Source: Patescibacteria group bacterium | GTDB lineage: Bacteria > Patescibacteriota > Microgenomatia > Levybacterales > UBA12049 | Reading direction: 5' to 3' | NCBI GenBank assembly: GCA_026004395.1 | Contig: BPJB01000001.1 | Coordinates: forward strand, 519,343-583,342 | DNA: 64,000 bases | Shown here: piece after piece, positions 33,843 through 51,888 of the stretch | Layout: each line of letters begins with the position of its first letter | How positions within the stretch are numbered: the stretch's first letter is position 1 | Position numbers and translations under genes: made by a program | Notes under the pieces: generated by a model | The model's input: only the letters and a program-made list of their open reading frames with translations | Databases searched by the model: none | What the model was told of the DNA's origin: nothing

Positions 33843-34152
33843 AAATACAAAAATCTTACCCTGCTCTTACTATTTATTCATGACACTCTTATCTGTTGAG
33901 CTTAATCTAAATATTATAAGAGGAAAGTTATGTTAACTCTTTTATATACATCTTTACAATCACATACGAACAATAATGAAATAGGTTTTTTGCTAAGTAT
34001 TATATTGTTTATTGTATTAACTTTGTTATTTTTCTTCTTTGGAATCGCATCGCTATCAAGTTCTGAGATTCAACTTGAAGTCAGCTTATCTGAACAAAAT
34101 AAAAATGTTTCAAAATAATGAAACAAAAATTGCAGAAAGGAGGTGAGATATA

Positions 34153-34407
34153 ATGAACATTATTCTCTGGATTATTTTCGGAGCACTTGCTGGTTGGATA
34201 GCATCAATCATTATGGGGACAGATAAACGACAAGGAGCTCTGATGAATATCGTAGTTGGTATTATAGGAGCATTTATAGGAGGATTTTTAATGAGTTTGC
34301 TGGGATTTCCGGGAGTAACAGGCTTTAATATTTACAGTCTATTAGTCGCTATCCTTGGAGCTGTTGTACTTGTCTTCTTGGTTGGAACATTTAGAAAAAC
34401 AGCATAA
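34153..34407 (+). CDS. GlsB/YeaQ/YmgE-family stress-response membrane protein
   Basis: 84 aa reading IIFGALAGWIASIIMGTDKRQGALMNIVVGIIGAFIGGFL. SD AAGGAGGTG 7 nt upstream. Confidence 0.75.
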   Translation: MNIILWIIFGALAGWIASIIMGTDKRQGALMNIVVGIIGAFIGGFLMSLLGFPGVTGFNIYSLLVAILGAVVLVFLVGTFRKTA

Positions 34408-34427
34408 ACATCTCTCTCAAAGAGATA

Positions 34428-34458
34428 ACAGGCTATCTTTGTGATAGCCTGTTCTTAT
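34428..34458. terminator. Probable bidirectional terminator hairpin between the glsB-like gene and dinB
   Basis: 10 bp stem ACAGGCTATC / GATAGCCTGT with loop TTTGTG, followed by a short T-containing tract. Confidence 0.45.
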
Positions 34459-34571
34459 AGTACAATCTTCCTTTGAACGCTAACTGTGAAACAAAGGTAA
34501 ATATTACAAAGATTACATTCTCCTTAATAGTTTTGATCGTCATAACAATTAGTATCAAGTAGACAGGCAAT

Positions 34572-35870
34572 TTATTGATGTCTAGTTTGATACTCCTCAG
34601 CTAATTTTTTACGCTCAAATCTATCCGACATCCAACCATTAGGAACAGTTGTCAGATGAGGTACACCCAGTAAAAATCCATTGCGAATGGTATGATCACC
34701 AAAGCGTTCATTAAGAGCATCAACAACCTGCATCAATCTCTCTTTTCGTTTATCCTCATACAAAAGAGGGGAGGGAATATACTGAGAATCTTTTAAATAT
34801 CCTGCCCATACTCCGATACGTCGTACATATCCTAAAGGTAGCTCTCCTCCTGATTCTCTTCTAATAATACTTAGGGATTCTTTAAAAAGATCAAGACCGC
34901 TGTCAATAAATTGTTCTTTTGTTCTTTGGCCAAACAGAGTATAAGATCCAACTAAAGATAGTCCAACACTCCTAGCTTTTTTCTTCAGTTTACGAAGTTT
35001 TCTACCTATCTCCTCAGAGAGTTCATAAATATGTTGCAGAATAACACGTCTATTATATTCATTTTGGGGGAGACAGTATTGCCTACCAACAGACTTCACT
35101 TCCGCAGTTTTTGTATATGCTCTTACTTGACTTGTATCTTTACCAAGTCCAACGTCTTTAAGAAATTGACCTTCTACCGGACCAAACTCGGCGATAAGAG
35201 CCGAAAGGGGAGTACGGCGAAGCTGGTTGAGAGTATAAATTCCCATTTGATTCAATCTAGCCTCAATTCGCGGTCCAATACCACAAATATCCTGCAACTT
35301 AGCGATACTATAGACACTCTCAATCTGATCTGATGAGATAACAAAAACACCATTGGGTTTCTTAAGTCCTGATGCGAGTTTGGCAAGCATTTTATTCGGT
35401 GCAATCCCTACTGATACTGTAATATACTCTCCAAGCTCTTCTTGAATACGCAGTTTGATTGTCCGCACTAAAGACTCAACTCCTCCATATAAATGGACTG
35501 TAAGTGTCGCATCCATAAAAATCTCATCAAGAGAAAATACTTCAATTTCAGGTGAAAAATCACTGCAAAGCGCAATAAATTTCTTACTTACCTCCCAATA
35601 TTTGCGAAAATCTGCAGGCACAAAAATAATATTAGGACATATTCTCAATGCCTCAAATGTCCTCATCCCTGTATTAATACCTAATCTTTTTGCTTCACGA
35701 CTGGAAGCTATGATGCATGTTCTACCATTCGTTGCGGTCACACCAATGGGTTTATTGCGCAGAAATGGATTACATTGCTGCTCAACACTAGCAAAAAATG
35801 AATCAAAATCAATATGCAAAATAATACGCTGTGACATAGAAAAAATTAAAGCATCAAATTTTACAATCAC
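34572..35870 (-). CDS. dinB: DNA polymerase IV (Y-family, DinB)
   Basis: ILHIDFDSFFASVEQ catalytic motif and an SLDE motif. Length is about 420 aa. The probable start is the internal Met (MSQRII). It is last in a lexA-orf87-dinB operon on the minus strand. Confidence 0.9.
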   Translation of the reverse strand: MIVKFDALIFSMSQRIILHIDFDSFFASVEQQCNPFLRNKPIGVTATNGRTCIIASSREAKRLGINTGMRTFEALRICPNIIFVPADFRKYWEVSKKFIALCSDFSPEIEVFSLDEIFMDATLTVHLYGGVESLVRTIKLRIQEELGEYITVSVGIAPNKMLAKLASGLKKPNGVFVISSDQIESVYSIAKLQDICGIGPRIEARLNQMGIYTLNQLRRTPLSALIAEFGPVEGQFLKDVGLGKDTSQVRAYTKTAEVKSVGRQYCLPQNEYNRRVILQHIYELSEEIGRKLRKLKKKARSVGLSLVGSYTLFGQRTKEQFIDSGLDLFKESLSIIRRESGGELPLGYVRRIGVWAGYLKDSQYIPSPLLYEDKRKERLMQVVDALNERFGDHTIRNGFLLGVPHLTTVPNGWMSDRFERKKLAEEYQTRHQ

Positions 35871-35905
35871 CTAAAACTTATAGAAATAATCTAATTTGGT
35901 ATGCT

Positions 35906-36169
35906 TTATGAGCCGCTATTTATATCATCTATCTCCTCCAAAATCCACTGAAGGCTCTCTGTATTGAATTTCAGACGAAAAAACAAATTATCATCAGCAA
36001 CAGTAAAGAAGTGATAAAGTACGCGACCTTCATAAAGAGAGTAGTGAAGACCAACTGTAGTAATCGTATAAATTCTTCCTCTCCACTTAATTCTCCATGG
36101 TAAAAACTTCTTTGTCTGTCCATTAAAAACTGCAATAATACTTGGTGTTTCATGAATAACCTCACTCAT
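35906..36169 (-). CDS. Small protein between lexA and dinB (possible YolD-like accessory factor)
   Basis: 87 aa. No motif I can verify. The position mirrors the yolD/yqjX-type small genes that precede Y-family polymerase genes in SOS cassettes. Confidence 0.35.
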   Translation of the reverse strand: MSEVIHETPSIIAVFNGQTKKFLPWRIKWRGRIYTITTVGLHYSLYEGRVLYHFFTVADDNLFFRLKFNTESLQWILEEIDDINSGS

Positions 36170-36237
36170 AAAAATTTTCTAAAGATTAGTTATCCAATAT
36201 TTGAAAATCTAAAATATTGAAAACTCTGATAAACAAT

Positions 36238-36807
36238 TTATCGATACTTGCGAATAACACTTGCGACAACACCCCCTATCAAAAGACTCTCATTTGGCTT
36301 GATAGGAGGATAGGCAGCATTCGCAGGTTTGAGAATAATTTGATTGTTTTCCTTATGAAAGTATTTCACTGTCCACTCACCATCAATACAAGCCGCAACA
36401 ATATCTCCGTTTTTAGGCTCTATACCTTTCTCAACAATCACTATATCTCCATCATGAATACCCTCATCTATCATAGAATCACCCCTAACTGTGAGAGAAA
36501 ACATCTCCGAGGGAGTGCTAAGTAGATACTCATAAAAATCTATACTATCATCCACCGACGGATTAGCAGGAGTAGGATATCCTGCCTTGATAATACCCAA
36601 ATGGGGTATGTGAAATAGTTTCTTAGGGAGGATTTTGCCTTTTGCGTCTTTTTCTAGAATTTCAGCTTCGATAAGTTTATTTACCAAATAGACTGCAGCA
36701 TTTTTAGATGAATATCCAAAAAGATCACAAATCTCCTGGTAGGAGGGGAGTCGTCGTTGTTTTCTATAAAATGTTCTTAATTTAGAGATAGCACGATCTA
36801 CGTTCAT
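36238..36807 (-). CDS. lexA: LexA repressor (S24 peptidase)
   Basis: N-terminal winged-HTH. C-terminal S24 domain with the catalytic Ser in VRGDSMIDEGIHDGDIVIVE and the catalytic Lys in EWTVKYF. Confidence 0.9.
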   Translation of the reverse strand: MNVDRAISKLRTFYRKQRRLPSYQEICDLFGYSSKNAAVYLVNKLIEAEILEKDAKGKILPKKLFHIPHLGIIKAGYPTPANPSVDDSIDFYEYLLSTPSEMFSLTVRGDSMIDEGIHDGDIVIVEKGIEPKNGDIVAACIDGEWTVKYFHKENNQIILKPANAAYPPIKPNESLLIGGVVASVIRKYR

Positions 36808-37005
36808 AATGATAGATTAGAGTCAAATAAAACTAATTATGATCTGATAATCTCAAAAAGTAGTTTACTGTTCTGTACTGTTTATGTTATATCTTGTACG
36901 ATCGTTCAATGTCAAGATGACAAAAGACATCAAAACATAACATAAATCAACTGGTAGTAAGATATGTAAAAGAAAAATTAACAGGGGTAAACAGAAAGTA
37001 ATATT

Positions 37006-37083
37006 TGGGGTGGCTGAGGGGACTCGAACCCCCGACATTCAGGTCCACAACCTGACGCTCTAACCAACTGAGCTACAGCCACC
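37006..37083 (-). tRNA. tRNA-His (anticodon GTG) with G-1 and encoded CCA
   Basis: 78 nt. Extra 5' G (G-1) opposite discriminator C. Anticodon stem-loop TCAGG-TTGTGGA-CCTGA. T-loop TTCGAGT. 3' CCA is encoded. Confidence 0.8.
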
Positions 37084-37161
37084 GTAAAATTGAGAATCAA
37101 CTGTCTAAAATCTTATCGAGCAATAAAATATAGTATAGCATATTAATTAGCTAAAACGAAG

Positions 37162-37374
37162 CTATTTGCGGAAAAAAAGATAAGCAATAATGCTCAGAAT
37201 TATACTTATAATAATTGATGTAACAATAGGAAAGTAAAAGGTAAAACCATCACGTTTTATATAAATATCTCCTGGCAACCTGGGAGGAAAGGGTAGTGAA
37301 GGGAAGAAAGTAAAGACCAATCCTATAATAAGTAGCATTCCTCCTATTATGATAAATAACTTACCTATTTCCAT
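37162..37374 (-). CDS. DUF2905-family small membrane protein
   Basis: 70 aa with two TM helices flanking the central LPGDIYIKRDGFTFYFP motif. Confidence 0.6.
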   Translation of the reverse strand: MEIGKLFIIIGGMLLIIGLVFTFFPSLPFPPRLPGDIYIKRDGFTFYFPIVTSIIISIILSIIAYLFFRK

Positions 37375-37378
37375 ATCC

Positions 37379-38038
37379 TTAAATCCTTTCTAATTGTGGA
37401 TCACGAGTTGGAGACAATTTAGCAAAAAAATATCCTGTTGCAAACCCGCCTATATGTGCAAAATAAGCTACTCCTCCTTGTTCTGGAGTCATTCCCAGTG
37501 TACCTACTCCTGAGAGTACTTGAAGAAAAATCCAGTATCCTAGCATTACAGCAGCACTAATATTTGCTGTAGTAATAAATGGAGGAATAAAAACCAATGT
37601 CTTGATTTGATGATGAGGAAAATAGGCAAAATATGCACCCAATGCTCCAGCAACTGCTCCGGAAGCACCAAGCATAGGGATATCTGATGCAGGATTCAAA
37701 AGATACTGTACTAAGCTACCTACAATACCAGATGTCAAATAAAGAAAAAGATAAACAAAAGGTGGCATATTACCCTCTACATTATCTCCAAATACCCACA
37801 GAAAAAGCATATTTGATCCGATATGCAACAAACCTCCATGAAGAAACATTGAAGTTATAAATGGATAAAGAGTGTTGATATCAGAAAAATCAATTTTTGC
37901 AGGAATAAGAGCATACATCAGTGTAAAAGTCTCAGGATTGATAATCTGAAGGTAGAAAACTGCAATGTTTATAGCAATTAAAAGTATATTAATAAAAGGG
38001 AAGCGTTTAGATTTCTCTGAGTCTGAAATTGGTAGCAT
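37379..38038 (-). CDS. Rhomboid-family intramembrane serine protease
   Basis: Six TM helices. Catalytic GASGAVAGALGAY (GxSG) and the HIGGF His motif. Confidence 0.85.
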   Translation of the reverse strand: MLPISDSEKSKRFPFINILLIAINIAVFYLQIINPETFTLMYALIPAKIDFSDINTLYPFITSMFLHGGLLHIGSNMLFLWVFGDNVEGNMPPFVYLFLYLTSGIVGSLVQYLLNPASDIPMLGASGAVAGALGAYFAYFPHHQIKTLVFIPPFITTANISAAVMLGYWIFLQVLSGVGTLGMTPEQGGVAYFAHIGGFATGYFFAKLSPTRDPQLERI

Positions 38039-38101
38039 ATTTTTTTATAGATGAGATATAGTTTACACGAAAAATGTAAGAAACACATCAAAAGCAATTT
38101 G

Positions 38102-38174
38102 TACGCCTGGAGGGATTCGAACCCCCGACCTGGTGCTTAGAACGCACTCGCTCTATCCACTGAGCTACAGGCGC
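38102..38174 (-). tRNA. tRNA-Arg (anticodon TCT)
   Basis: 73 nt. Acceptor GCGCCTG/CAGGCGT. Anticodon stem-loop AGTGC-GTTCTAA-GCACC. T-loop TTCGAAT. Confidence 0.8.
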
Positions 38175-38266
38175 ATGTAGAAGTTATTTTATCAAGATTT
38201 TCCTGCCTTAGCAAACTATTTAGCCTCATTGACAAATATTAAGCTAACATTTACTATGAAAAAGGT

Positions 38267-39265
38267 ATGGCTCATAAATTTTTTAGTTACTTACTCAAAA
38301 ACCAAGTGATTTTTGCTCTCTTTCTCATAGTAACAGGGTGGTTTCTCTTTCAGACAAGAGGCATCCTTACTTTGATCTTTCTTGCTTACATTATAAATGC
38401 GGCACTTCTTCCTCTAGTTAATAAGCTTCACAAAAGGGGAGTTCCTCATTTTTTATCAGTGCTTATTCCTTTTATAAGCATTTTATTAATTATCTTCTTG
38501 ATTGTCTTTCCACTTGTTCCTTTTGTAGCTTCTCAAGTAATGCTGCTCTTAACAAGATTACCTAATTATATTGACGACTCAACAAGAGCACTGGGTATTG
38601 TTATAGATGTAAATCAAGTACAAGACGTCGTAACAAAAGAGCTCAATACATTAGGAAAGAATGCTTTCTCTGTCACTAGTAAAGTCTTTGGAGGAATATT
38701 CTCAACACTTACAGTACTAGTAGTGAGTTTTTATCTAATTCTTTATCATGATCGCTTTAAGAGGAATATTGCGCATCTTTTCCATCCTAAAGATCGAGAA
38801 AAAGTACTGACAACCCTTAGTCTTATTGATGAAAAATTAGGAGCATGGGTACAAGGTCAATTAATTCTTTCATTATCTATTGGAGTAATTACCTGGATTG
38901 CGCTTAGTATTTTAGCTCTTCCCTATGCTGTACCACTTGCCATTTTAGCTGGTATGCTGGAGATTATTCCTACAATAGGACCTATTATTGCTTCCATACC
39001 AGCGATCATTGTTGCTTTTTCTATTTCACCCACGATGGCTATTGTTGTAGTTGTATTATATACTGTCATTCAAATGCTCGAAAATCACTTTTTGGTACCA
39101 AAAATTATGCAAAAAGCAGTCGGACTAAATCCAGTGGTAGTCATCGTCGCCGTTATGATTGGAGCAAATATGATGGGTGTTCTGGGAGCTCTTCTCGCAG
39201 TTCCATTTGTGTCCTTTATTATTGTCCTTTTCAATAGTATTAATGCCGCTGAAGAAAAACAATAA
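38267..39265 (+). CDS. AI-2E family transporter (PerM/UPF0118)
   Basis: 332 aa with about 8 TM helices. The overall pattern is typical of AI-2E transporters, including a conserved C-terminal PTIGPIIASIPAIIVAF segment. Confidence 0.7.
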   Translation: MAHKFFSYLLKNQVIFALFLIVTGWFLFQTRGILTLIFLAYIINAALLPLVNKLHKRGVPHFLSVLIPFISILLIIFLIVFPLVPFVASQVMLLLTRLPNYIDDSTRALGIVIDVNQVQDVVTKELNTLGKNAFSVTSKVFGGIFSTLTVLVVSFYLILYHDRFKRNIAHLFHPKDREKVLTTLSLIDEKLGAWVQGQLILSLSIGVITWIALSILALPYAVPLAILAGMLEIIPTIGPIIASIPAIIVAFSISPTMAIVVVVLYTVIQMLENHFLVPKIMQKAVGLNPVVVIVAVMIGANMMGVLGALLAVPFVSFIIVLFNSINAAEEKQ

Positions 39266-39853
39266 CTATTTCTCAGCAATTATAAGTGTCCAAGGAAGAG
39301 GATAACGTACTTTCTTAACCTTTAGTTTCTTACCGACAAAATGTTTAAATTGCCAAAATGTCCAATGATTAATATGTTCAATATCATTACCTAAACGCGT
39401 TAAATTTTTCCCTCGCAAAAAATTACCTAGCATAAATAATGGCTCATTGGGTACAGAAAGAACACAATATTTCTTCGTAACACGCACCAACTCCTCCAAA
39501 CCTTTTTCTGGATTATCAAGATGTTCTAACACTTCAGTGCATATAACAACATCAAAAGTCTCATCTTTATATTTTAGATCATAAATTGTTCCTTGCTTCA
39601 ATACCAAGCGAGGATGTTCTTTCTTACCTAGCTTAATAGCACGATCAAGATAATCTACACCCTCAAGTTTTTTCCCAATACCTGCCTTGCGCAAAATTTC
39701 TAATGTAAATCCTTCACCGCATCCAACATCAAGAATAGAGTAGGGCTGAAGAGCACGCACTTCTTCAAGTAGTGCTTTATTAAAATTCTCTAATAATTTT
39801 CTTTGAAGAAAACTATTACTTTTGTGTTTGAGGTAGTTGCTCGTAGCTTGCAT
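39266..39853 (-). CDS. Class I SAM-dependent methyltransferase
   Basis: Motif I ILDVGCGEGFTL and post-I acidic residue. Rossmann-fold methyltransferase pattern. Confidence 0.8.
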   Translation of the reverse strand: MQATSNYLKHKSNSFLQRKLLENFNKALLEEVRALQPYSILDVGCGEGFTLEILRKAGIGKKLEGVDYLDRAIKLGKKEHPRLVLKQGTIYDLKYKDETFDVVICTEVLEHLDNPEKGLEELVRVTKKYCVLSVPNEPLFMLGNFLRGKNLTRLGNDIEHINHWTFWQFKHFVGKKLKVKKVRYPLPWTLIIAEK

Positions 39854-40167
39854 GAACTATTATTATACATGATGCTATTACGGATAAAAACAGTATTTCT
39901 CAGTAGGTATTTTTTATATAAGCAAATTATTTCTTATATTTTGCAAAACTTCTTTCAGAGATTCATCTTTAAATAGTTGCAAACTTATTTTTGCTACTTG
40001 TATCTGCGCATCCATAATTTAGGGATATTCAAATGCAATTGAGTTACATTCAGATAAATCAAGATTTTTTTATTGATTCTCTTGATTTTTTTGTCGGATT
40101 CTTGAATGCTCCAGATTGAAGTATTTTGCCAAGTATACCTGTATACTTGGCAATATTGGGATATGTG

Positions 40168-40239
40168 AGCGGGGAACGGGATTCGCACCCGCGACCTCCT
40201 CCTTGGAAGGGAGGCATTCTACTGCTGAACTACCCCCGC
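40168..40239 (-). tRNA. tRNA-Gly (anticodon TCC)
   Basis: 72 nt. Acceptor GCGGGGG/TCCCCGC. Anticodon stem-loop CCTCC-CTTCCAA-GGAGG. T-loop TGCGAAT. Confidence 0.8.
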
Positions 40240-42904: not shown

Positions 42905-43193
42905 GTATAATCCATAAGAAAATTTTCTTTATAATTTGTAATTTTTTTTAAAGTATAAAGAAACTGAGTTAAAAATTTTCTCTGGGAAATAAAAAAGGCA
43001 ATAAAGAAGTTAAGTTAAGTAGAGGAGAAATACAAGGAACAATACGCTCAATTTTGGTGTAATGATTTGTGAATTGAGTATGCAAAATTAGTTAATTTAG
43101 AAAAGATAGTTTCACATCTTTGCTGGTATAATAAATTTTATCCAATTATCCTATATATTAAAACTAAAACAACTTTAGAATTGATAAAACAAA

Positions 43194-43475
43194 ATGCTTC
43201 ATAAGCTTTTTAAGATAATCTTGGGAGTGATAGTTTTTCTGATTTTGGTTTTTGTGGAGCTAGATCTACTCATAGCTGATTATGGTTGGAGAGAAAATCA
43301 AACAACAAGACTGATAGCAATACTTTCCCTGGCAGTATTCGGTTTTGGTTTATTTTGGCTTTTGTTCTGGGGGAAGCAACGAATAATTGCTTGGATTTTA
43401 ATTCTCGTTGCGGCAGTAATTTTCCTTTTTAGCGCCTTTTTGCCAGATAAACTTTCAGGGTTTTTAGTAATATAA
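43194..43475 (+). CDS. Hypothetical small membrane protein
   Basis: 93 aa with three TM helices. No recognised family. Confidence 0.3.
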   Translation: MLHKLFKIILGVIVFLILVFVELDLLIADYGWRENQTTRLIAILSLAVFGFGLFWLLFWGKQRIIAWILILVAAVIFLFSAFLPDKLSGFLVI

Positions 43476-43840
43476 GTTGCCTGTGTTTATGCCTCAAAAT
43501 CCACCTGAGGAACTTCTTCATTAAAAATGATACCCTTTGCTGTACTATATTCATATCATAGGTTGCATGATGTCTGATGAAAATTTTTTAATAATTTGAT
43601 AAATAGAATGTGAGTTCTAATATCACGAAATATGTCGGTAGCAAGATGATGAAAGGCGAAAATTACTACTAGAGTTAAAATCAGATTTAGCAATTTAATC
43701 TAATACATTACTACATCTGCTTTTTGCAATTTTTACAAAATGAATTATCGATTGCAAAATCAAAAACTGTGGCTAATTCTAGGACTAAGTTTTGAAGCAT
43801 ATCTATTAACAATTGTTGATCAAAATTTAGAATTTTAGAT

Positions 43841-44174
43841 TGGTCGCAGTTACTGAACGCCGCTCGAACTTTCTTTGAACGACAATCTGCGCCCTGACGG
43901 GCGCAGAACCCGCCCAGCGGCTCGTCGCCTGACGGCGGCAGGCAAAGCCCGCAAAAATTTCCTTTTCTTTTAAGGGGGACGCGCAAAAAATTTTTTCAAT
44001 TAAGGAAACAATTTTTGCGGGCTTTGCCTCTTTGCTGGCGCAAAGACGAGCCGCTTCCCACCCCCAGTCCGCCTTCGGCGGACAGAGCAGGCGGGCAAAA
44101 ATTCCTTCCCCCAGACCCCCTTCCTTTTTGCCCGCCTGCTTGGGCTTCGCCCTAAAATTTTTTGGCGGGACTAT
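43841..44174 (+). repeat. IR1-L: 334 bp GC-rich hairpin-rich repeat, left copy
   Basis: Exact reverse complement of 49416-49749, checked segment by segment. Built from consecutive stem-loops, e.g. CTGCGCCC-TGAC-GGGCGCAG, TCCGCC-TTCG-GGCGGA, GGCAAAGCCCGCAAAAATT...AATTTTTGCGGGCTTTGCC and GCAGGCGGGCAAAAA...TTTTTGCCCGCCTGC. Confidence 0.85.
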
Positions 44175-44203
44175 AAATCAAAAAGGGCGGTGGGTGGGGT
44201 TAG

Positions 44204-45868
44204 TTACATTAAAACTGTTTTCATTAATTCTTTCAAATAATCAGGTTCTAACAAATCGTTTTCTGAATTAATATTATTCCAACCATCCTTCTCTCCTTTA
44301 TTGTGTTTATAATACATCTCCGGTGCACCGTGTCGCAACACAAAGAATCTTTTATCCTGTAAACTCCGTATCAAATCATCAAAACCATCAGGCACTCCTT
44401 TTTCATCTAATTTTTGAACTATATAATCTAGTTTCGGATCACCATCATTTTGCCAATCAATGTGTGCACGAAACCTCCTGAGCAACTCTTTTTCCAGTCC
44501 AAATTCTTCGAGCAGATACTCTATATCACGACTAAATAGATAATCCAAATCGCATATCACAGCAATATCATCAAAACACATCTGCTGATAAAATTTTCTC
44601 GCCAACCTTAATTGCTTTTTGCCATCGGCTTTAATGAAAAGAGTAAATTTTCCCTTTGGAGGATGAATATTAAAAATGATTTTTAATTTTTCATAAAAAT
44701 TCTCGTCATGACTGCCTTCAATTAAAACAACGCTGTCAGCAAATAACCCTTCAAGATTTCCACGACGCTCAAGGTGTCGTTTAACTAAACTTACATCAAC
44801 GCTGGATGGATTGAGAGCGATATTTTTGGTTCCTTCCTCTTTAGTTTTTCTTACTCTCCGATAGCCCTCAATAGTTGTTGGTGTAACAATGAAAGGTGAA
44901 TGTGTAGTTGTTACTATCTGATAACGCTCCATCATTTGGATTAAAGCATTTGCCATCTCACGTTGAGCATACGGATGAAGAAAAGATTCTAATTCTCCAA
45001 TTAAAAATATTGGCGCAGGACGATCTTGGTATCTTTTGCCTTTTTTAGCTAGCAACTTCAAAAAAGCTAATAATGTTGCTCTCTGCAAGCCATGCCCTTT
45101 TTGTTCTACTTCTGTTTTATGTCCATCATCAAGGAAAATCTTCATCTCTTTTGCAATAACAGTTTCGTCTGGTAAACCAAATTCAACAGATGGTGTAATA
45201 TCACTAAATTCACCCATAAATTCTTCTTTTAATCCAGCCTCGAACTCTGTGATTGCTTTGGAGCGTACTCCCTCTTCTTCGCTATGGAGGAAATTGTCTA
45301 AATCTGTTAAAACAGATTTTGTTTTAACAGCTAATTCTTGAAAAAATGAACTCATTACTTCTTTTTTTAATTTTCCCAATGCTGTTGTAGATTTATCAGT
45401 TAATTCTTGAACAGTATCAGCAGTAGCTGGAATTGATATAACATCTGGGAGAATTTTTAATAAATTTCCTGTAAAACCACTTGGATTGTGTAAAGTGCCA
45501 TCTTCTTTATAAATACCAATCTGAGCACCCGACTCCGGAGTTAGTATAGAGGCAATTTTCAAAATACCATTATCAATAGCGTTTTCTATTGCCTCTTTGT
45601 GATTACTAGCCTTTACTAAATGAGTAAAATCACTAATTCCTGCAAATTCGCCCTCTAAAACTATCGGTTTATCTTTGTCATGTTGCCATTTTGGAATATG
45701 CTCCTTCCTTATTCCAGTAGATAGCAATAATTCAGTTGCCTTCAGATAATGTGACTTCCCTGCGTTGTTTCTACCAACAAAAAAAGTAAATTCATTGAAA
45801 AAAACCTCATCTTCTTTGATTGGTCCTAAATTTTTAATTGTTAACTTTTTTAATAAAACCCTACTCAT
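44204..45868 (-). CDS. OLD-family ATP-dependent endonuclease (AAA ATPase plus Toprim), GajA-like
   Basis: N-terminal LTIKNLGPIK...FTFFVGRNNAGKSHYLKA (Walker A of the AAA_15/21 family). ABC-like signature and Walker B FLIGELESFLHP. C-terminal Toprim with VVLIEGSHDE and a DxD in VICDLDYL. Confidence 0.8.
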   Translation of the reverse strand: MSRVLLKKLTIKNLGPIKEDEVFFNEFTFFVGRNNAGKSHYLKATELLLSTGIRKEHIPKWQHDKDKPIVLEGEFAGISDFTHLVKASNHKEAIENAIDNGILKIASILTPESGAQIGIYKEDGTLHNPSGFTGNLLKILPDVISIPATADTVQELTDKSTTALGKLKKEVMSSFFQELAVKTKSVLTDLDNFLHSEEEGVRSKAITEFEAGLKEEFMGEFSDITPSVEFGLPDETVIAKEMKIFLDDGHKTEVEQKGHGLQRATLLAFLKLLAKKGKRYQDRPAPIFLIGELESFLHPYAQREMANALIQMMERYQIVTTTHSPFIVTPTTIEGYRRVRKTKEEGTKNIALNPSSVDVSLVKRHLERRGNLEGLFADSVVLIEGSHDENFYEKLKIIFNIHPPKGKFTLFIKADGKKQLRLARKFYQQMCFDDIAVICDLDYLFSRDIEYLLEEFGLEKELLRRFRAHIDWQNDGDPKLDYIVQKLDEKGVPDGFDDLIRSLQDKRFFVLRHGAPEMYYKHNKGEKDGWNNINSENDLLEPDYLKELMKTVLM

Positions 45869-45883
45869 AGAGTTCTTGTAATT

Positions 45884-46804
45884 TTATAAATCAAATCTTT
45901 TGTTTAATTTGTACATTTTGTTATCTAATAGTTTCAAATTCTTTTCTTTATTTTTCCAAATTTCTTTAAAATCCTTGTCTCTCATTGTGCGAATTTCACC
46001 AAGATAGACAGATACATAACAACCATTTACTTTTGTCTCTTTCGCTTGTTTTAGATTTTTTTCTGTAATTTTTATATACTGAGGGTCAATATCTATCCCA
46101 ATATACTTTCGTCCTAAACGTTTAGCGGCGACAGCGGTAGTTCCCGTACCAATGAATGGATCAAATACAATATCTCCCTCGTCGGTACTCATCAAAATAA
46201 GTCTCTCTAGTAATGGCACAGGTAATTGACAAGGATGTTCGTCTCTTCGTTTTTTATGACGGATTCTGTGAATGTCAGACCAAACATCGGAAAGAAGAGG
46301 GCCAAAGCCATGTGCTTGATCCTTTTTACCCCCATAATCTTTCAAAAACTCCTTACAGACACGACAGCGTGGATGTGGATATCTAATGTCATAAAACTTA
46401 AAATCCTTGTATGATTTTGATTTTGTGTAATATAAAATCCCATAGTGATTCGGTAAAAGCGTCTTGCCCATCGGTGCACCACCGGAATCCCAAGTAATCC
46501 AATGCCTAAAATAGGCGATTTTGTTTAGGTACTCGGCAAAGTGCGATAACCAACGGGGAATATTATGAACAAAAATAGATCCGCTTGGTTTTGTAATTCT
46601 CACCATCTCGTTCATCCATTTATTGCACCATTCTAAATACTCCTCTTTTTCTTTTGTGTCCTCATAGTGGTTATATTTTTTCTTCAAGTTAAAAGGCGGG
46701 TCAGCAAAAGTCATATCCACTGAATTGTCAGGGATATCTTTCATCACTTCCAAACAATCGCCTAGAATAATTTTGTTCTCAAATTTTTTAATATCTTTGC
46801 CCAT
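45884..46804 (-). CDS. DNA amino-methyltransferase (N6A/N4C, beta-class order IV then I)
   Basis: Motif IV TFADPPFN near the N-terminus. Motif I DIVFDPFIGTGTTAVAA near the C-terminus. Confidence 0.85.
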   Translation of the reverse strand: MGKDIKKFENKIILGDCLEVMKDIPDNSVDMTFADPPFNLKKKYNHYEDTKEKEEYLEWCNKWMNEMVRITKPSGSIFVHNIPRWLSHFAEYLNKIAYFRHWITWDSGGAPMGKTLLPNHYGILYYTKSKSYKDFKFYDIRYPHPRCRVCKEFLKDYGGKKDQAHGFGPLLSDVWSDIHRIRHKKRRDEHPCQLPVPLLERLILMSTDEGDIVFDPFIGTGTTAVAAKRLGRKYIGIDIDPQYIKITEKNLKQAKETKVNGCYVSVYLGEIRTMRDKDFKEIWKNKEKNLKLLDNKMYKLNKRFDL

Positions 46805-46806
46805 AA

Positions 46807-47826
46807 CTACTTGTTGAATACGGTTGATAACAATTCTTTAAAGCGATTAAGTTCCTCTTTGTGAAAAGTAAATACTTCATCATAAGCTCCAACCATTCTT
46901 TTAAGGTCGTTTTTTCTTACATACCAACCAATACCATCCACAAAACCAATAAATAGAGCTTTGGGATAATGCTTTTTGATGAGCTTAGCAACATTTATCT
47001 CTGTTTTTGCTTTGTCTCCTTGGCCAGAGGAAGTCGTTACAACATAAGAAGACTCGACAATCAATAATGGATTATTCTGATCGGGAATAATAAAATCCAT
47101 TGTTCGTTTTTCTTCATCCAGTACACCAACTAATTTTTGTAGATCTCCAGAAGTATATGGTATTTCAAGCTCCTCTAAAATTTTCTCAATAAGCACTTCT
47201 GGGTTATTTTCTTTTTTACCGGCATACGATCCTTTTTCTTTGTAGCGTATTAAAGTATCAACAAGAGATTCTATTTTAAATTCCAGCTTTTCAACACTTA
47301 GCTTTTTAAGTTCAAATAAAGGCAGGGCTTGAGTTAGTACAGGAACGGTAGAGCCCTCAAAAAATATATTTACAATTCCTTTCGCAAAGTTTTCATTATT
47401 CTTTATTAGATTAGCAATCTTTGAGTCGCTCCATTCACTAACTCCTCCCTCATCAATTTCTTCTGTTCCTGTTTGCCATTTATCTTTCAATGTAAGCCTG
47501 TTTAATTCCTCATCGTCAATCACTCTTATTAGAGTTATTAAGCGTTTTAAATATTCATTTGAGATGCCAGTCAATGCAAGTAGTGCTCGCAAGCCGTTTT
47601 TCTTATTGCGGATTAATTCAACAAAAAAGTCTTTCTTAAGTCCTTCTGTTGAGACTTTATTTCGCAATACTAAAAGTAATTCTTTGATTGAAGAAATATA
47701 GCCCTCGTATTTTTCCTCAAAATCACGGTCGTAAAGATAAAAGGTATTTTTATCTATAACCAGCTTAAATTTTGATTCAGTTGTGGGTTTTGAAATTTTA
47801 ATCATATTTTTATTTGTCATTTTCAA
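46807..47826 (-). CDS. Hypothetical protein, candidate restriction endonuclease of the RM operon
   Basis: 339 aa with no family match. The position between two MTase genes and a C-terminal MDFIIPDQNNPLLIVESSY stretch with possible PD..E nuclease residues suggest the R subunit. This is an inference from context only. Confidence 0.3.
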   Translation of the reverse strand: MKMTNKNMIKISKPTTESKFKLVIDKNTFYLYDRDFEEKYEGYISSIKELLLVLRNKVSTEGLKKDFFVELIRNKKNGLRALLALTGISNEYLKRLITLIRVIDDEELNRLTLKDKWQTGTEEIDEGGVSEWSDSKIANLIKNNENFAKGIVNIFFEGSTVPVLTQALPLFELKKLSVEKLEFKIESLVDTLIRYKEKGSYAGKKENNPEVLIEKILEELEIPYTSGDLQKLVGVLDEEKRTMDFIIPDQNNPLLIVESSYVVTTSSGQGDKAKTEINVAKLIKKHYPKALFIGFVDGIGWYVRKNDLKRMVGAYDEVFTFHKEELNRFKELLSTVFNK

Positions 47827-49039
47827 AAATTAAAATATATTCTTCCTTCATCGTATTTTGGAGACCTTTAATTGGTTTCAAAATTTCAAAAAGAAATTTA
47901 AACTTTTGCCCTTCTGCTAATTCTTTAATTTTCGTCTCCAATCTAACACCTTTTGTCTGAATATCGTTAGTTCCAACCACAAAAATAGTTTTGCTACCCT
48001 TTTTACTAACTCTTGCCAATTCTCTAAACACTTTATCAAGCATTTCAAAATAAAGTTCCAACTTTTGACTTATTCCTCTGCCTTGCAAACCAATCATCTT
48101 TTCTTTTAACTTGTCTGGGGCATAGCCAAGATATTCCAATTGTGGTTTATCATTATCTACATAATCTATTGCAAAAGAATAAGGCGGGGAGGTAATTACG
48201 CCGTCAACGCTATTATCTTCCAAGGGTAATTTTAACGCACTATCTTCAATAATTTTACTTTTCCCTATTTTTAAACCTAATTTTTCTCTTGCATTTTGGA
48301 AATTTTTGATAGTTGTTATATACCTGTTAAGTACAATTGGAAAAAGAGCACTTAACGATTTAGAGCTTCTGCGCGCGAAACCCACGGCATCAAGATAGGC
48401 TAATAAAGCAACTTCGTAGTATGACCTATCTTCATCGTCGCCATCTTTTATAAAATAGTGCGGTACTTTATCCTTGTTTAACTTTTTAAAAATTTTATTT
48501 TGTTCGTGGGTTATTTGAGTAAGTTTTTCGCTGTTAAGATTTAAGGCAAAAGTTTTTACTCTGCCCATCAAACAACAAAAGGGACTTACATCGACGCCCA
48601 CTGAATCAATGCCTAACAAATTTGCCTCTACTGATAAAGTCGCACTACCAGACATTGGATCAAGAACAACATTGCCCGGTTTTAGACCCATCATATTTAG
48701 TAAAGCCCTTATCATCTGTGGATGAAATTTGCCTCTATATGGGAATAAACTATGAGTGGCGTATCCTGTAGAATATTTACCATTTAAGAAAAAGGCTTTT
48801 GTGCGTAAGGAACTATTGCGATGTATATCTTCTAAATTTTGAAGATTGCAAGTCTGGTAGTGAATCGTTGGCTCGCCTTCTACTGATTTAAAGTATGCAC
48901 TGCGCCTAATTAAATCTTTTTTATTAAGATTTTCATATTCCCAAATAGCAAAATTTAACTCAAAAATTTCATCAGTCCCATCAATTAACTGATAGTCAGT
49001 AGGAAATAATTTTTTTGTTATTGGTTGAAAATTTTGCAT
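47810..49039 (-). CDS. DNA amino-methyltransferase (order I then IV, SPPY)
   Basis: Motif I VVLDPMSGSATL precedes motif IV VITSPPYSFAIDY. This is a second, differently organised MTase in the same operon. Confidence 0.7.
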   Translation of the reverse strand: MQNFQPITKKLFPTDYQLIDGTDEIFELNFAIWEYENLNKKDLIRRSAYFKSVEGEPTIHYQTCNLQNLEDIHRNSSLRTKAFFLNGKYSTGYATHSLFPYRGKFHPQMIRALLNMMGLKPGNVVLDPMSGSATLSVEANLLGIDSVGVDVSPFCCLMGRVKTFALNLNSEKLTQITHEQNKIFKKLNKDKVPHYFIKDGDDEDRSYYEVALLAYLDAVGFARRSSKSLSALFPIVLNRYITTIKNFQNAREKLGLKIGKSKIIEDSALKLPLEDNSVDGVITSPPYSFAIDYVDNDKPQLEYLGYAPDKLKEKMIGLQGRGISQKLELYFEMLDKVFRELARVSKKGSKTIFVVGTNDIQTKGVRLETKIKELAEGQKFKFLFEILKPIKGLQNTMKEEYILIFENDK

Positions 49040-49041
49040 AG

Positions 49042-49254
49042 TTATTTAATCAAATCATCAATCGGCACATCTAATGCTTTCGCAAGTTTAGTTATAGTTT
49101 CAAAAGTAGGATTTTTATTTACTCCATTCTCAATTTTTACAACGGTATTTAATGAAAGATCTGCAAGACGAGCCACTTTCTCAAGAGAATAGCCCTTTTT
49201 AGCCCTTAATTTTTTTAGATTATCCGATATTTTATTTGACATTTGCATATCCAT
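49042..49254 (-). CDS. XRE-family HTH protein, probable RM controller (C) protein
   Basis: 70 aa. LKKLRAKKGYSLEKVARLADLSLNTVVKIENGVNKNPTFETITKLAKALDV is a classic XRE HTH of C-protein size. It is the first gene of the minus-strand operon. A candidate promoter lies at 49330-49365 on the minus strand: -35 TTGATG, -10 TGGATAAT. Confidence 0.7.
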   Translation of the reverse strand: MDMQMSNKISDNLKKLRAKKGYSLEKVARLADLSLNTVVKIENGVNKNPTFETITKLAKALDVPIDDLIK

Positions 49255-49415
49255 TGTTTAACATTATAGTATATAGATTATATTCTAAACTTTCTTATTT
49301 TTCTATTATAATGATAACTAATTATCCAGAAAAAGTAAAGAAAAATCATCAAGGGAGTTTCCTTTTGTCGCCCGCGCATGGGTTGGGTGGGGCAAGGGCG
49401 ACTATAAAAAATACA

Positions 49416-49749
49416 ATAGTCCCGCCAAAAAATTTTAGGGCGAAGCCCAAGCAGGCGGGCAAAAAGGAAGGGGGTCTGGGGGAAGGAATTTTTGCCCGCC
49501 TGCTCTGTCCGCCGAAGGCGGACTGGGGGTGGGAAGCGGCTCGTCTTTGCGCCAGCAAAGAGGCAAAGCCCGCAAAAATTGTTTCCTTAATTGAAAAAAT
49601 TTTTTGCGCGTCCCCCTTAAAAGAAAAGGAAATTTTTGCGGGCTTTGCCTGCCGCCGTCAGGCGACGAGCCGCTGGGCGGGTTCTGCGCCCGTCAGGGCG
49701 CAGATTGTCGTTCAAAGAAAGTTCGAGCGGCGTTCAGTAACTGCGACCA
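49416..49749 (-). repeat. IR1-R: 334 bp inverted copy of IR1-L
   Basis: Perfect reverse complement of 43841-44174. It overlaps IR2-L by the hexamer CGACCA (49744-49749). Confidence 0.85.
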
Positions 49750-49902
49750 TACGATACTTTCAGAGTTTTTGGGCGAGTTTGATTGCTCGCTCGCCTCGCC
49801 AGAGGCGAGGCTCGCTTCGCAAATTTCCTTATATTTCGGCACTAAATCAAGGGGCGGACGGAAATCAAAGAGGATTTTTCTGTCCAGCAGGCGGCGGTTC
49901 GT
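49744..49902 (+). repeat. IR2-L: 159 bp GC-rich repeat upstream of the serine recombinase gene
   Basis: Exact reverse complement of 51446-51604. Contains hairpins GCGAG-TTTGATT-GCTCGC and GCCTCGCC-AGA-GGCGAGGC. Confidence 0.85.
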
Positions 49903-50074
49903 GGACGCAAAGCGCCCAGGGCAAAAGCCACCTTATAGAAAATCTATTGAATGCTTTTGCTCTCCAATTTTTTCCGCCTTTTGCCAAAGGTAAAAGAACA
50001 AAGCAAGTTTTTAATCTCGCGCTTTACACTGCGCCACAGGCGCAGTGGCCAAAGGCGACTAACCTAAAAGCAAT

Positions 50075-51664
50075 ATGAAGATCAAATACTTTTTATACGC
50101 TCGCAAATCAACAGAGGACGAAGAAAGACAAGTGATGTCTATTGAAGCCCAGCTTGCGGAGTTGGCGGAATATGCCAAGCGCGAAGGGCTGGAAATTATT
50201 GAGCAGTTTGTGGAAAGCAAAAGCGCAAAGAAGCCCGGGCGAGAAATTTTTAATAAGATGATTGAAAAAATCCATACCAGCAAAAGCCCGGTTGGCATTT
50301 TAGCGTGGCACCCTGATAGATTGGCAAGAAACAGCGTTGACGGCGGGCAGGTTATTTACCTCATAGACCAAGGCAAAATCGCTTCTTTGCGCTTTCCTAC
50401 TTTTTGGTTTGAGCCAACTCCGCAAGGACTTTTTATGCTTCAAGTCGCCTTTGGCCAAAGTAAGTATTACTCGGACAACTTGTCCGAGAATGTAAAGCGC
50501 GGGATTCGCCAAAAACTCAGGCGCGGGGAATATCCGGGCAAAGCTCCGCTTGGATATGTAAATAATCCCAAGACAAGGAACATTGAGCCAGACCCGACCA
50601 AAGCAAAAATTGTGGCAAAAGCCTTTGAGGAGTTTGCCCAAGGAAAGCACACTCTCAAAAGTTTAGGCGAGCGCCTGAGTTTTTGGGGCGTGGTGAGCAA
50701 AAACGGCACACCTCTTGCCAAAGCCACAATCCAACGAATGCTCACTAATCCAACTTATCTCGGCTTGATTGTCCACAAGGGCGAAACCTACGAGGGCAAG
50801 TTTCCTCCAATTATTTCCAGAGCGACTTTTTCAGCCGTTCAAAAAATGTTGAAGCAGAGAGCAAGGCCGCGCAAAACAAGAAAAGGACACAACTTCCCGT
50901 TTGTCGGGCTTTTCCGGTGCGGAGAGTGCGGCGGTATGATAACCGCGCAGTGGGCAAAAGGAAAATACCGCTACTACCGGTGCACAAAGAAGTTTGACAA
51001 ATGCAGCCAAGGATACTTGCGCGAGGACTTGCTCGTTGCCCAGCTTAAAGAAAAGCTGAAAAAAGTCGCTCTCTGCGAAGACTGGGCGGAAAAGATGTTG
51101 GTAAAGGTAGATGAATGGGAAAAGGAACAAGCCCAGTCTTCGCAGTCTTTCGCCCAAAATCTTGAGGAGAAAATCAAAGAAACCGAACAAAAGCTGGATA
51201 GATTAGTTAACGCCTTTTTGGACGGCACCATTGAAAAAGAGACCTATCTTGCCAAGAAAGACGAACTCATTAAAACTAAAACCGCCCTTCTGGAAAAGAA
51301 AGGCGATTTTGGGCGAAAGGGAAACAATTGGATCGAACCATTGAGAAATTGGATAAAAGACGCTCACCACGCCGAAAAACTTGCTTTGTCTCAACCCAGC
51401 CCATTAGATTTATATGAATGGGCTGGGTTTGCGGAAAAAATTGGAACGAACCGCCGCCTGCTGGACAGAAAAATCCTCTTTGATTTCCGTCCGCCCCTTG
51501 ATTTAGTGCCGAAATATAAGGAAATTTGCGAAGCGAGCCTCGCCTCTGGCGAGGCGAGCGAGCAATCAAACTCGCCCAAAAACTCTGAAAGTATCGTATG
51601 GTCGGGGACAGAGGACTCGAACCTCCGACCTCACGGTCCCAAACCGCGCGCTCTAGCCAACTGA
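50075..51664 (+). CDS. Large serine recombinase (serine integrase/transposase type)
   Basis: N-terminal resolvase catalytic domain with YARKSTEDEERQVMSIEAQ (catalytic Ser in RKST), a recombinase domain, a zinc ribbon CGECGG...YRCTKKFDKC, and a coiled-coil. GC content is about 50% against a roughly 33% background. The last ~50 codons lie inside IR2-R and the final ~20 codons run into tRNA-Pro, so the C-terminal extent is uncertain. Confidence 0.85.
   Translation: MKIKYFLYARKSTEDEERQVMSIEAQLAELAEYAKREGLEIIEQFVESKSAKKPGREIFNKMIEKIHTSKSPVGILAWHPDRLARNSVDGGQVIYLIDQGKIASLRFPTFWFEPTPQGLFMLQVAFGQSKYYSDNLSENVKRGIRQKLRRGEYPGKAPLGYVNNPKTRNIEPDPTKAKIVAKAFEEFAQGKHTLKSLGERLSFWGVVSKNGTPLAKATIQRMLTNPTYLGLIVHKGETYEGKFPPIISRATFSAVQKMLKQRARPRKTRKGHNFPFVGLFRCGECGGMITAQWAKGKYRYYRCTKKFDKCSQGYLREDLLVAQLKEKLKKVALCEDWAEKMLVKVDEWEKEQAQSSQSFAQNLEEKIKETEQKLDRLVNAFLDGTIEKETYLAKKDELIKTKTALLEKKGDFGRKGNNWIEPLRNWIKDAHHAEKLALSQPSPLDLYEWAGFAEKIGTNRRLLDRKILFDFRPPLDLVPKYKEICEASLASGEASEQSNSPKNSESIVWSGTEDSNLRPHGPKPRALAN
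51446..51604 (-). repeat. IR2-R: inverted copy of IR2-L, inside the recombinase 3' end and abutting tRNA-Pro
   Basis: Perfect reverse complement of 49744-49902. Its last 6 bp (TGGTCG on the plus strand) are the 3' terminal CGACCA of tRNA-Pro. Confidence 0.85.
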
Positions 51665-51675
51665 GCTAGTCCCCG
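51599..51675 (-). tRNA. tRNA-Pro (anticodon TGG), CCA encoded
   Basis: 77 nt. Acceptor CGGGGAC/GTCCCCG. Anticodon stem-loop CGCGG-TTTGGGA-CCGTG. T-loop TTCGAGT. 3' ACCA. The 3' end coincides with the element boundary. Confidence 0.8.
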
Positions 51676-51803
51676 TATCGCATTTGCAATTCATTTTGCA
51701 GTAGCTTTTGAAAATCCATCTCTATATTCTTACCTATTATCATTACAAACTTTTGATTGCATTCATTACCTCAATTTGATTTATCTTAATTAACTTTGAT
51801 GAG

Positions 51804-51888
51804 TGCCGCGAGAGAGACTCGAACTCTCACGTCCTTTTAGGGACAAAGGCTCTTAAGGCCCTCGTGTCTACCATTCCACCACCGCGGC
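51804..51888 (-). tRNA. tRNA-Leu (anticodon TAA) with long variable arm
   Basis: 85 nt. Acceptor GCCGCGG. Anticodon stem-loop AGGGC-CTTAAGA-GCCTT. Long variable arm TGTCCCTAAAAGGACGT. T-arm GAGAGTTCGAGTCTCTC. Confidence 0.75.

Follow-up and report, generated by a model that had tools for sequence, protein, structure and literature searches.

Integrases of the large serine recombinase (LSR) class are, as a rule, described with a single attachment site, attP, and with protein-coding genes as their targets. The locus considered here, positions 43841-51604 of a 64,000-nucleotide stretch of a Patescibacteria genome (contig BPJB01000001.1; below, the window), encodes an LSR next to a tRNA-Pro gene and is, with high probability, an integrated island of a widespread LSR family that inserts at the 3' ends of tRNA genes and is undescribed in the literature searched. 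With the phage-type LSR systems (phiC31, Bxb1, A118/LI, SprA of SPbeta, TP901-1) it shares the domains of the recombinase, short cores, a displacement of the recognition motif by 4-5 bp, attL and attR as the products and an attP next to the recombinase gene. It differs from them in being distant in sequence, in targeting tRNA 3' ends by a mimic of the T-loop, in the absence of a phage and of a recognisable directionality factor, and in that the elements keep a second, inverted and complete attP with arms of 0.1-0.6 kb. The staphylococcal cassette chromosomes (SCC, with CcrA/CcrB/CcrC) and the developmental excision elements of the XisF type are also small non-phage islands with accessory cargo, located at the 3' end of a conserved gene and prone to tandem accretion; SCC, however, targets rlmH and not a tRNA gene, and its ends bear short inverted and direct repeats, with no internal inverted attP. 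The tyrosine-integrase tRNA islands (classical ones, tycheposons, pipolins) likewise occupy tRNA 3' ends, carry defence cargo, form tandem arrays and exchange cargo, whereas here the chemistry is that of a serine recombinase (double-strand break and subunit rotation), only a core of 3-9 nt is duplicated, and nested repeats occur in the present elements only.

The segment begins with the left arm of inverted repeat 1 (IR1-L, or A arm, 43841-44174, plus strand), continues with a cargo arc and with the right arm of the same repeat (IR1-R, or A', 49416-49749, plus), which runs into the left arm of inverted repeat 2 (IR2-L, or B', 49744-49902, plus), and is completed by the recombinase arc, the right arm IR2-R (B, 51446-51604, plus) and tRNA-Pro. 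This anatomy had been proposed in the first-pass annotation of the window, and all its coordinates hold in the sequence. In self-comparison of the window the IR1 arms (334 nt) are 100% complementary with 0 mismatches, and the IR2 arms (159 nt) are 100% identical as an inverted pair; the 353-nt, 97% pair delivered by the initial repeat search is IR1 with 19 chance-extended bases. The next-longest inverted pair in the region has only 31 nt and 71% identity, and repeats so long (334 and 159 nt) and perfect are far from anything that chance would produce. The hexamer CGACCA (49744-49749) is the exact overlap of IR1-R and IR2-L, which are thereby merged into a single 487-bp unit (49416-49902), with no second copy elsewhere in the 64 kb. 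TGGTCG opens IR1-L (43841-43846) and closes IR2-R (51599-51604), where it is the 3' end of tRNA-Pro(tgg), the target gene (51599-51675, minus strand; ARAGORN; Rfam tRNA, 62 bits), whose last 6 nt are thus shared with the element. The GC content is about 33% in the host and the cargo (33.8% in the cargo arc), 54% in the repeat unit and 46% in the recombinase arc, and an Rfam scan of the region yielded tRNAs only, plus chance microRNA matches.

Close relatives of the host were found via the neighbouring ATP-binding cassette (ABC) transporter (92% amino acid identity), the best named matches of which are from Patescibacteria of the Roizmanbacteria/Levybacteria type. In two metagenome contigs, L168 and L169, the ABC transporter gene is followed by about 100 bp, a tRNA-Pro 100% identical to that of the window, tRNA-Leu and the gene of an S11 carboxypeptidase, with no island. 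Their junction reads ...GTTCAAATTTAGAT-TGGTCG-GGGACAGAGG (in the short form, ...TTTAGAT-TGGTCG-GGGAC; the flank left of TGGTCG can also be given as ...AAATTTAGAT), and the left end of the segment in the window reads ...AAAATTTAGAATTTTAGAT-TGGTCG-CAGTTACTG. Comparison of these junctions defines the bacterial attachment site, attB, as flank-TGGTCG-tRNA, and the element as 43841-51604. The empty-site alleles that the first-pass annotation had proposed to look for, with an intact tRNA-Pro joined to the flank through TGGTCG, are therefore present in both contigs, and the element is bounded by attL (core TGGTCG at 43841-43846, plus strand, the joint of host flank and element) and attR, which share the 6-bp core with the unoccupied attB. 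The contig collection contains no exact copy of the recombinase or of the ABC transporter of the window.

At E<=1e-20, more than 7,600 homologues of the recombinase were found (the best 120 of them 65-93% identical), the named ones being assigned, by the labels of the submitters of the metagenome-assembled genomes (MAGs), to Patescibacteria, Omnitrophota, Marinimicrobia, Elusimicrobia and Acidobacteria; loci encoding its relatives number at least 586 in species-representative genomes and at least 574 in metagenomes of the Joint Genome Institute (confirmed loci). In every locus the internal site is composed of the A' arm, the core and the B' arm, and the right end of the B arm, the core and the tRNA. 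The core corresponds to the terminal 3-9 nt of the tRNA and varies from target to target, being CGACCA at Pro genes, CAGCCA at Gln, CCACCA at Ala, and CGACA or CAACA where CCA is not encoded. The conserved part of the A arm is the P' arm of about 37 nt, with the consensus TgGTcG.a..TacTgAACgaaGctCGAACcT.tTTtg over 27 loci; in the window it is represented by the P'-type half-site CAGTTACTGAACGCCGCTCGAACTTTCTTTG, the first ~37 nt past the core in IR1-L, the remainder of which consists of GC-rich hairpins. In the A arm, (G)TTCG lies 23 nt from the core, and in the tRNA the T-loop motif, GTTC(G/A)A, lies at a distance of 18 nt, so that the motif of the A arm is shifted outward, by 5 bp in 29 of 32 loci and by 6 bp in the other 3. 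According to a study of large serine integrases (bioRxiv 10.1101/2025.01.03.631226), the distal motif, bound by DBD2/zinc-ribbon, lies 4-5 bp further out in attP than in attB half-sites. Since the shift in our loci fits this rule, the A arm may be regarded as a P'-type mimic of the tRNA half-site, B-core-A as attP, and the ends of the island as attL and attR. The central 487-bp unit is then, by its sequence, predicted to be a complete attP in inverted orientation, with A' as its P' side and the CGACCA core at 49744-49749 (plus strand) inverted relative to attL and attR. Recurrence of A and B of this central attP in attL (flank-core-A) and attR (B-core-tRNA) gives rise to the two nested inverted repeats. 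The idea of a recombinase acting on the long repeats as such, raised in the first-pass annotation, is not needed: the termini are ordinary att half-sites of about 40-50 bp, given the conserved P' arm of about 37 nt and the 5-bp shift of the T-loop motif.

The choice of targets was surveyed for 168 recombinase genes, of which 140 were informative downstream and 86 upstream; junctions were classed by simple motif rules, which left 14 of the 140 and 23 of the 86 as "other". The gene abuts a tRNA 3' end in 113 of the 140 cases and a B-core-A junction in 13. The targets fall into 15 tRNA species: Pro (64 genes), Glu (12), Ala (9), Ser (5), Arg (4), Gln, Trp and Ile (3 each), Phe, Leu and Lys (2 each), Asp, His, Met and Tyr (1 each). 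Unlike LSRs as usually described, the whole clade targets tRNA ends by T-loop mimicry and always keeps a second attP; having been naturally retargeted to 15 tRNA species, it offers a promising supply of integrases whose landing sites are predictable and conserved.

As to the overall architecture, self-comparison of 160 loci revealed all nested-repeat parts in 32, which we term complete. They share one layout: core-A, cargo, A'-core'-B', recombinase, B-core and tRNA on the minus strand, with IR1 of 131-607 nt, IR2 of 92-193 nt and cargo arcs of 1.1-8.9 kb. The complete inverted attP persists in all 32, including that of the window at 49416-49902, at odds with the single attP expected of LSR elements. 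The layout is kept in L001, L110, L140 and L161, where the arms have diverged to 81-95%, and in L091, the recombinase of which is merely 43% identical to that of the window. In the full-text literature searched, which mostly did not cover subscription journals, we found no account of LSR islands that target tRNA genes and contain an inverted internal attP, and of the options listed in the first-pass annotation it is the integrative element with unusually structured ends that has been borne out. Extra inverted pairs in L104 proved to be ordinary palindromic terminators, and a restriction-modification (RM) cassette shared between the window and L002 was rejected, their likeness at the DNA level being limited to the repeat unit and the recombinase.

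One could suppose that the segment combines two unrelated neighbours, an RM/OLD island within IR1 and a separate recombinase element within IR2; the cargo is host-like in GC content (33.8%, against 54% in the repeats and 46% in the recombinase arc), the cargo and recombinase modules have different histories (see below), and tandem accretion at tRNA genes does occur. We nevertheless hold this to be very improbable, as the two units share the internal core and invariably occur jointly, in one order and orientation, in 32 loci, A and B together make up one attP, the A arm is a T-loop-mimicking half-site for the same recombinase, and the A-cargo-A' unit encodes no recombinase. An artefact of assembly or amplification, that is, a chimeric inverted duplication, might come to mind because both repeats of the window are 100% identical and most MAG contigs break at the repeats. 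The probability of this is negligible: the architecture recurs in dozens of independent assemblies made by different assemblers, among them the long-read contigs L036 (640 kb, a complete locus), L060 and L076; the arms of some loci have diverged to 81-95%, their hairpins showing compensatory changes; and the repeat boundaries coincide exactly with the att core. As a side observation, L060 and L076 are parts of one 6.2-Mb Bacteroidales long-read contig and represent two copies of a related element at two different tRNA-Pro genes, each with an internal attP and with no IR1 partner within 9 kb upstream; either their cargo exceeds 9 kb or their architecture is a variant one.

The first-pass annotation had also considered a new transposon or insertion sequence (IS) family, with the long inverted repeats as ends and the serine recombinase as transposase. 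Indeed, inverted repeats of 92-203 nt flank the recombinase gene in almost every locus, and many homologues are located on contigs of about 2 kb. Such contigs, however, consist of the 1.54-kb recombinase arc and two B arms, and most MAG contigs begin 50-450 bp upstream of the recombinase gene, inside the repeat. MAG contigs so often end upstream of recombinase genes because the assembly graph breaks at the repeat, and the same repeats account for the 50-450 bp distances; longer loci show the full architecture, and a free minimal recombinase-only element of about 2 kb was accordingly rejected, the recombinase with IR2 alone being seen only in L033. Given, in addition, the strict specificity of insertion for tRNA 3' ends with a shared core (113/140), the single copy in the window and the score of 27.7 bits with the IS607-type model NF033518 (cut-off 110), a transposon or IS is highly improbable. 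IS607-type elements encode a small recombinase with an N-terminal helix-turn-helix (HTH) and a C-terminal catalytic domain, lack terminal repeats and have a relaxed target, in contrast to the tRNA-specific recombinase of the window with its N-terminal catalytic domain. A viral or temperate phage origin was rejected too, the family not being phage-borne: IMG/VR gave only 2 partial matches, and there are no phage genes in the cargo.

The recombinase itself is an open reading frame (ORF) of 529 aa (50075-51664, plus strand) with Resolvase, Recombinase and Zn_ribbon_recom domains (Pfam PF00239, the N-terminal resolvase catalytic domain, 9.7e-22; PF07508, 7.8e-17; PF13408, the zinc ribbon, 4.2e-12). 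It belongs to no NCBIfam equivalog; the nearest curated models are XisF (100 bits), CcrB (99, cut-off 900), CcrA (80, cut-off 700) and CcrC (42, cut-off 900), the first three scores being far under the family cut-offs of 375-900 bits, and the best full-length match in the PDB is the distant SprA (E=5e-5). The recombinase belongs to a large uncharacterised clade spread over many phyla.

We propose the following course of events. There is good support for integration through an exchange between attP and attB within TGGTCG at the end of tRNA-Pro; in it the recombinase most likely recombines attP (B-core-A) with attB (flank-TGGTCG-tRNA-Pro), recognising the target through the tRNA half-site with its GTTC(G/A)A motif. 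The P' arm carries a copy of this motif 5 bp further out, as is the case for every large serine integrase studied. The left half of attB is apparently not sequence-specific, and the tRNA remains intact. Two transcription units are predicted to diverge from the central 487-bp unit, a regulator-led cargo operon leftward and the recombinase gene rightward. The free form would be a circle in which two inverted attP regions separate the cargo arc from the recombinase arc; that an excised circle would hold two inverted 487-bp copies had been noticed in the first-pass annotation and follows from the sequence. The attP at the recombinase 3' end would serve for integration, the other would survive it as a live site able to pair only with a new tRNA-type attB, and gene conversion, together with selection on the arms bound by the recombinase, would maintain the similarity of the two copies. 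Such a circle has an architectural analogue in the yeast 2-micron plasmid (FLP/FRT), which likewise has two inverted repeats with sites and two arcs, one of them encoding the recombinase; the latter, however, is a tyrosine recombinase, and the 2-micron plasmid is autonomous, with an origin, and exists as equimolar isomers, whereas the orientation here is nearly fixed. No replication gene was found in the cargo of the window or in the surveyed cargo, and no contig among 80 metagenome loci is circular.

Several points weigh against this scheme. Free use of two sites predicts that both orientations should be common, but the recombinase gene is directed toward the tRNA in 113 of 140 informative cases, and a tRNA lies upstream of it in 5 of 86; besides, the cargo regulator adjoins A' in 12 of the 12 loci having one, which speaks against free use of either attP. 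A circular or excised form was not encountered (0 of the 80 metagenome loci have terminal overlaps), and a B-core-A junction, such as a circle would have, looks the same as the internal site or an array junction. Apart from the recombinase gene, the only recurrent one is that of a small HTH protein, and no directionality factor was identified, so that excision stays a prediction. In a canonical integrase, two attP sites synapse into a locked, inactive tetramer (SPbeta structural study). Finally, the orientation of the arcs in this particular assembly is not checkable from the sequence, both repeats being 100% identical and longer than typical short reads.

The same data bear on an invertible cassette, or phase switch, in which the recombinase or the host RecA would flip the RM/OLD arc and/or the recombinase gene and thereby switch expression. 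Both arcs are flanked by inverted repeats with cores at their outer ends, so flipping would keep every junction and the recombinase ORF intact; moreover, the recombinase genes of L033 and L046 are opposite relative to tRNA-Pro(cgg), and there are the five loci with the tRNA upstream. Yet the orientation is nearly fixed not only in the survey as a whole but also in loci whose IR2 arms differ by at least 7% and which therefore are not mis-phasable (13 of 16 informative ones are canonical), the position of the regulator at A' is constant, and the cargo operon seems to have its own candidate promoter, so that inversion would be no obvious switch. In addition, large serine integrases, phiC31 and Bxb1 included, are not known to carry out recombination of attP with attL or attR. 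The cargo operon and the recombinase gene are divergent in nearly all loci, and switching of the RM orientation, one of the possibilities named in the first-pass annotation, has found no evidence; we regard a phase switch as very unlikely. The Hin/Gin/Pin switches, for comparison, rely on a small invertase, inverted sites of about 26 bp with an enhancer and both orientations, as opposed to the 529-aa LSR and the canonical orientation in 113 of 140 cases here.

Returning to an island integrated by attP x attB exchange, one should ask what its second attP is for. Because canonical integrases recombine attP only with attB, a catalytic role of the internal site needs either non-canonical behaviour or a second attB; the presence of several attP sites in one cell was called biologically unlikely (SPbeta structural study). 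The locked attP-attP tetramer fits the absence of free flipping and leaves the conserved internal site unexplained. The second attP may, tentatively, be a part of the free or integrating form, that is, of a two-attP circle; this is possible, if short of probable, and its weakness is the orientation bias. A role of a cis partner, which would release the dimers bound at attL and attR so that excision needs no directionality factor, appears rather unlikely to us. Improbable, too, is a splint, with a single strand folding into a dumbbell and rebuilding attP. The analogy here is with CTX-phi and the attC sites of integrons: two inverted site copies in a single strand could pair to a duplex attP, and the unit is GC-rich and structured; CTX-phi and attC, however, use tyrosine recombinases, which act on one strand pair, while serine chemistry cuts both strands, and no single-stranded stage is known here. 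A device for rare inversions or rearrangements is improbable as well, in view of the nearly fixed orientation. More broadly, it is unlikely, though worth keeping in mind, that the internal attP takes an active part in some novel means by which LSRs control or bypass directionality, either through excision without a protein factor or through a dumbbell used for escape or for establishment after DNA uptake. Were either version true, the family would consist of natural integrases redirected to at least 15 tRNA 3' ends through changes in nothing but the core and the T-loop-mimicking arm.

Tandem arrays of different elements at one tRNA (L091, L127, L136, L161) account for part of the B-core-A junctions. 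The newcomer is located next to the tRNA, and its left junction is the B arm of the resident joined to its own A arm, which implies that the left half of attB needs no particular sequence. All six two-recombinase arrays are direct tandems, and engulfing of newcomers by inversion through the internal attP has accordingly no support. In L073, as in the four loci above, members stand in tandem at one tRNA or at adjacent tRNAs, and in L136 a third repeat-bounded unit comes after the second recombinase gene, which is truncated. As for the exceptional L033 (941-2936), its B'-LSR-B unit is located between tRNA-Pro(ggg) and an inverted tRNA-Pro(cgg) and has no cargo unit; the homologous host locus L046 (9503-10000), on a contig of the same MAG, has the recombinase gene in the opposite direction, next to tRNA-Pro(cgg). 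The layout of L033 would be expected if the internal attP had recombined with a second attB or if two exchanges had taken place, and this suggests that the internal attP may recombine with a second tRNA gene and rearrange the chromosome. B' and B are mismatched in L001 and L033, while L031 and L035 share A arms and differ in B; the mismatched arms point to possible exchange between elements at the core.

The two copies of a repeat within an element are usually 96-100% identical, against about 75-85% between elements, which indicates concerted evolution. IR2 is kept at 96% or more even where IR1 is down to 84-94%. In the eight loci where IR1 has drifted, 315 of 320 positions match in the P' arm (the first 40 nt) and 1781 of 1920 in the rest; since this arm stays matched, both recombinase-binding copies appear to be under selection. 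Over 27 loci the mean GC content is 51.6% in the repeat unit, 41.8% in the host, 38.0% in the cargo and 43.1% in the recombinase arc. The repeat unit folds much more stably than shuffled controls (z = -8.6 as DNA and -8.5 as RNA); it is a chain of local hairpins, in which 23 of 80 consensus pairs show a compensatory change (six elements). The A arms of 11 loci (the window, L002, L020, L031, L035, L043, L045, L066, L088, L090, L092) contain a conserved hairpin with a G-rich loop, GCGGGCAAAAAGGAAGGGGGTCTGGGGGAAGGAATTTTTGCCCGC in the window (44095-44131, minus strand; second copy at 49459-49495, plus). It has a covarying stem of 11-16 bp (GCGGGCAAAAA / TTTTTGCCCGC) and a mirror-symmetric G-rich loop (GGAAGGGGGTCTGGGGGAAGG), the orientation of which relative to the att core varies among elements. 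Hairpins of the outer copies are found, as terminator-like matches, at the exit of the cargo operon and at the entry of read-through from the tRNA; in the window the terminator scan located them in IR1-L (43886-43907, minus) and in IR2-R (51528-51543, minus, facing the tRNA read-through). An insulating or terminating role of the outer repeat copies is plausible, and the central copy is not explained thereby.

The cargo of the window is an operon on the minus strand. It starts with a small C-protein-like regulator of 70 aa of the XRE/HTH_3 type (49042-49254; HTH_3 3.1e-16) and goes on to a DNA methyltransferase (47810-49039; UPF0020 2e-11, N6_N4_Mtase 2.8e-11), a putative type II restriction endonuclease, weakly similar to DpnII and BanI (46807-47826; DpnII 3.9e-7, RE_BanI 2e-4), another DNA methyltransferase of the N6/N4 type (45884-46804; N6_N4_Mtase 8.8e-53) and an OLD-family nuclease with an AAA_15 ATPase and an OLD-like TOPRIM domain (44204-45868; AAA_15 1.2e-28, OLD-like_TOPRIM 4.5e-6). 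A candidate promoter of the operon (TTGGCG, a 16-nt spacer, TATAGT; promoter scan) and a C-box-like palindrome, GACTAT-N10-ATAGTC, both lie upstream of the HTH gene at 49393-49428 (minus), straddling the inner edge of IR1-R. Among 63 cargo proteins from 18 complete loci, most are parts of type I, II and III RM systems (N6_N4 and D12 methyltransferases; ApaLI, MamI, BglII and IceA endonucleases; ResIII; HsdS), accompanied by other defence or toxin proteins (OLD/AAA_15, AbiU2, Fic, SocA), LexA-like S24 proteins and such non-defence cargo as ALAD, a solute symporter, glyoxalase and an M64 peptidase. In Patescibacteria and many other, mostly uncultivated phyla the family appears to serve as a major carrier of RM and other defence genes that has gone unrecognised.

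A gene of an XRE-type HTH protein of 64-73 aa, opposite to the recombinase gene, adjoins A' in 12 of 19 complete loci, also in those with non-RM cargo. The identity of HTH proteins does not follow that of the LSRs (r=0.07 over 66 pairs): the window and L002 have 94% LSR and 48% HTH identity, and the window and L055 have 65% and 82%, respectively. It follows that the cargo arc, together with its regulator, and the recombinase arc are exchanged between elements, and that the HTH protein is unlikely to be a cognate directionality factor. As it travels with the cargo and not with the recombinase, its role as a conserved backbone gene or directionality factor was rejected, and the RM/OLD cassette, taken at first for an intrinsic part of the element, turned out to be exchangeable cargo.

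The conserved part of the recombinase protein ends at about the core (51599-51604), and the last ~20 codons are read-through into the antisense strand of tRNA-Pro. Nearly all homologues end with ...WSG and a variable tail translated from antisense tRNA, so the C-terminal tails of database recombinases (51605-51664 in the window) are a spurious annotation artefact and not conserved protein; ORF read-through explains their antisense-tRNA origin. About one quarter of the family proteins carry a tail from the A arm instead (WSQLLNE...), and the type of the tail reveals the downstream junction. IR2-R comprises the C-terminal codons of the recombinase from 458 onward, a hairpin, a P-type half-site and the attR core, and IR2-L is a non-coding inverted copy of the recombinase 3' end with a P-type half-site, as neither the ORF list nor reading of the sequence revealed a minus-strand ORF running through 49744-49902. 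The inner part of B encodes GTNRRLLDRK..FDF..PFDLIPKYK and must be a real coding sequence, since change in it is mainly synonymous. Upstream of the gene, the 5' leader (49903-50074, plus; alignment of 31 loci) contains three conserved blocks, TTTTTGCTTTCCAATTTTTTCC, CAAAGCAAGTTTTTTAATCCCGCGCTTT and GGCCAAAGGCGAC, with three hairpins between them that covary even where the recombinases are only 60-80% identical; this stretch may act as a regulatory leader or offer binding sites for proteins. A sigma-70 scan gave no convincing candidate for the recombinase promoter.

The window contains seven tRNA genes (29232-40239 and 51599-51888), all on the minus strand (Lys, Arg, His, Arg, Gly, Pro, Leu), and the island is present at tRNA-Pro only. 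Beside the island, the window has an extra ~0.9 kb (42907-43820) with a hydrophobic ORF of 93 aa (43194-43475), missing from L168 and L169, and a third relative, L166, has at this place a different filling of 2.7 kb (11770-14460) with three unknown ORFs and no recombinase. Taken together, these differences make the region downstream of tRNA-Pro a variable hotspot independent of the island.

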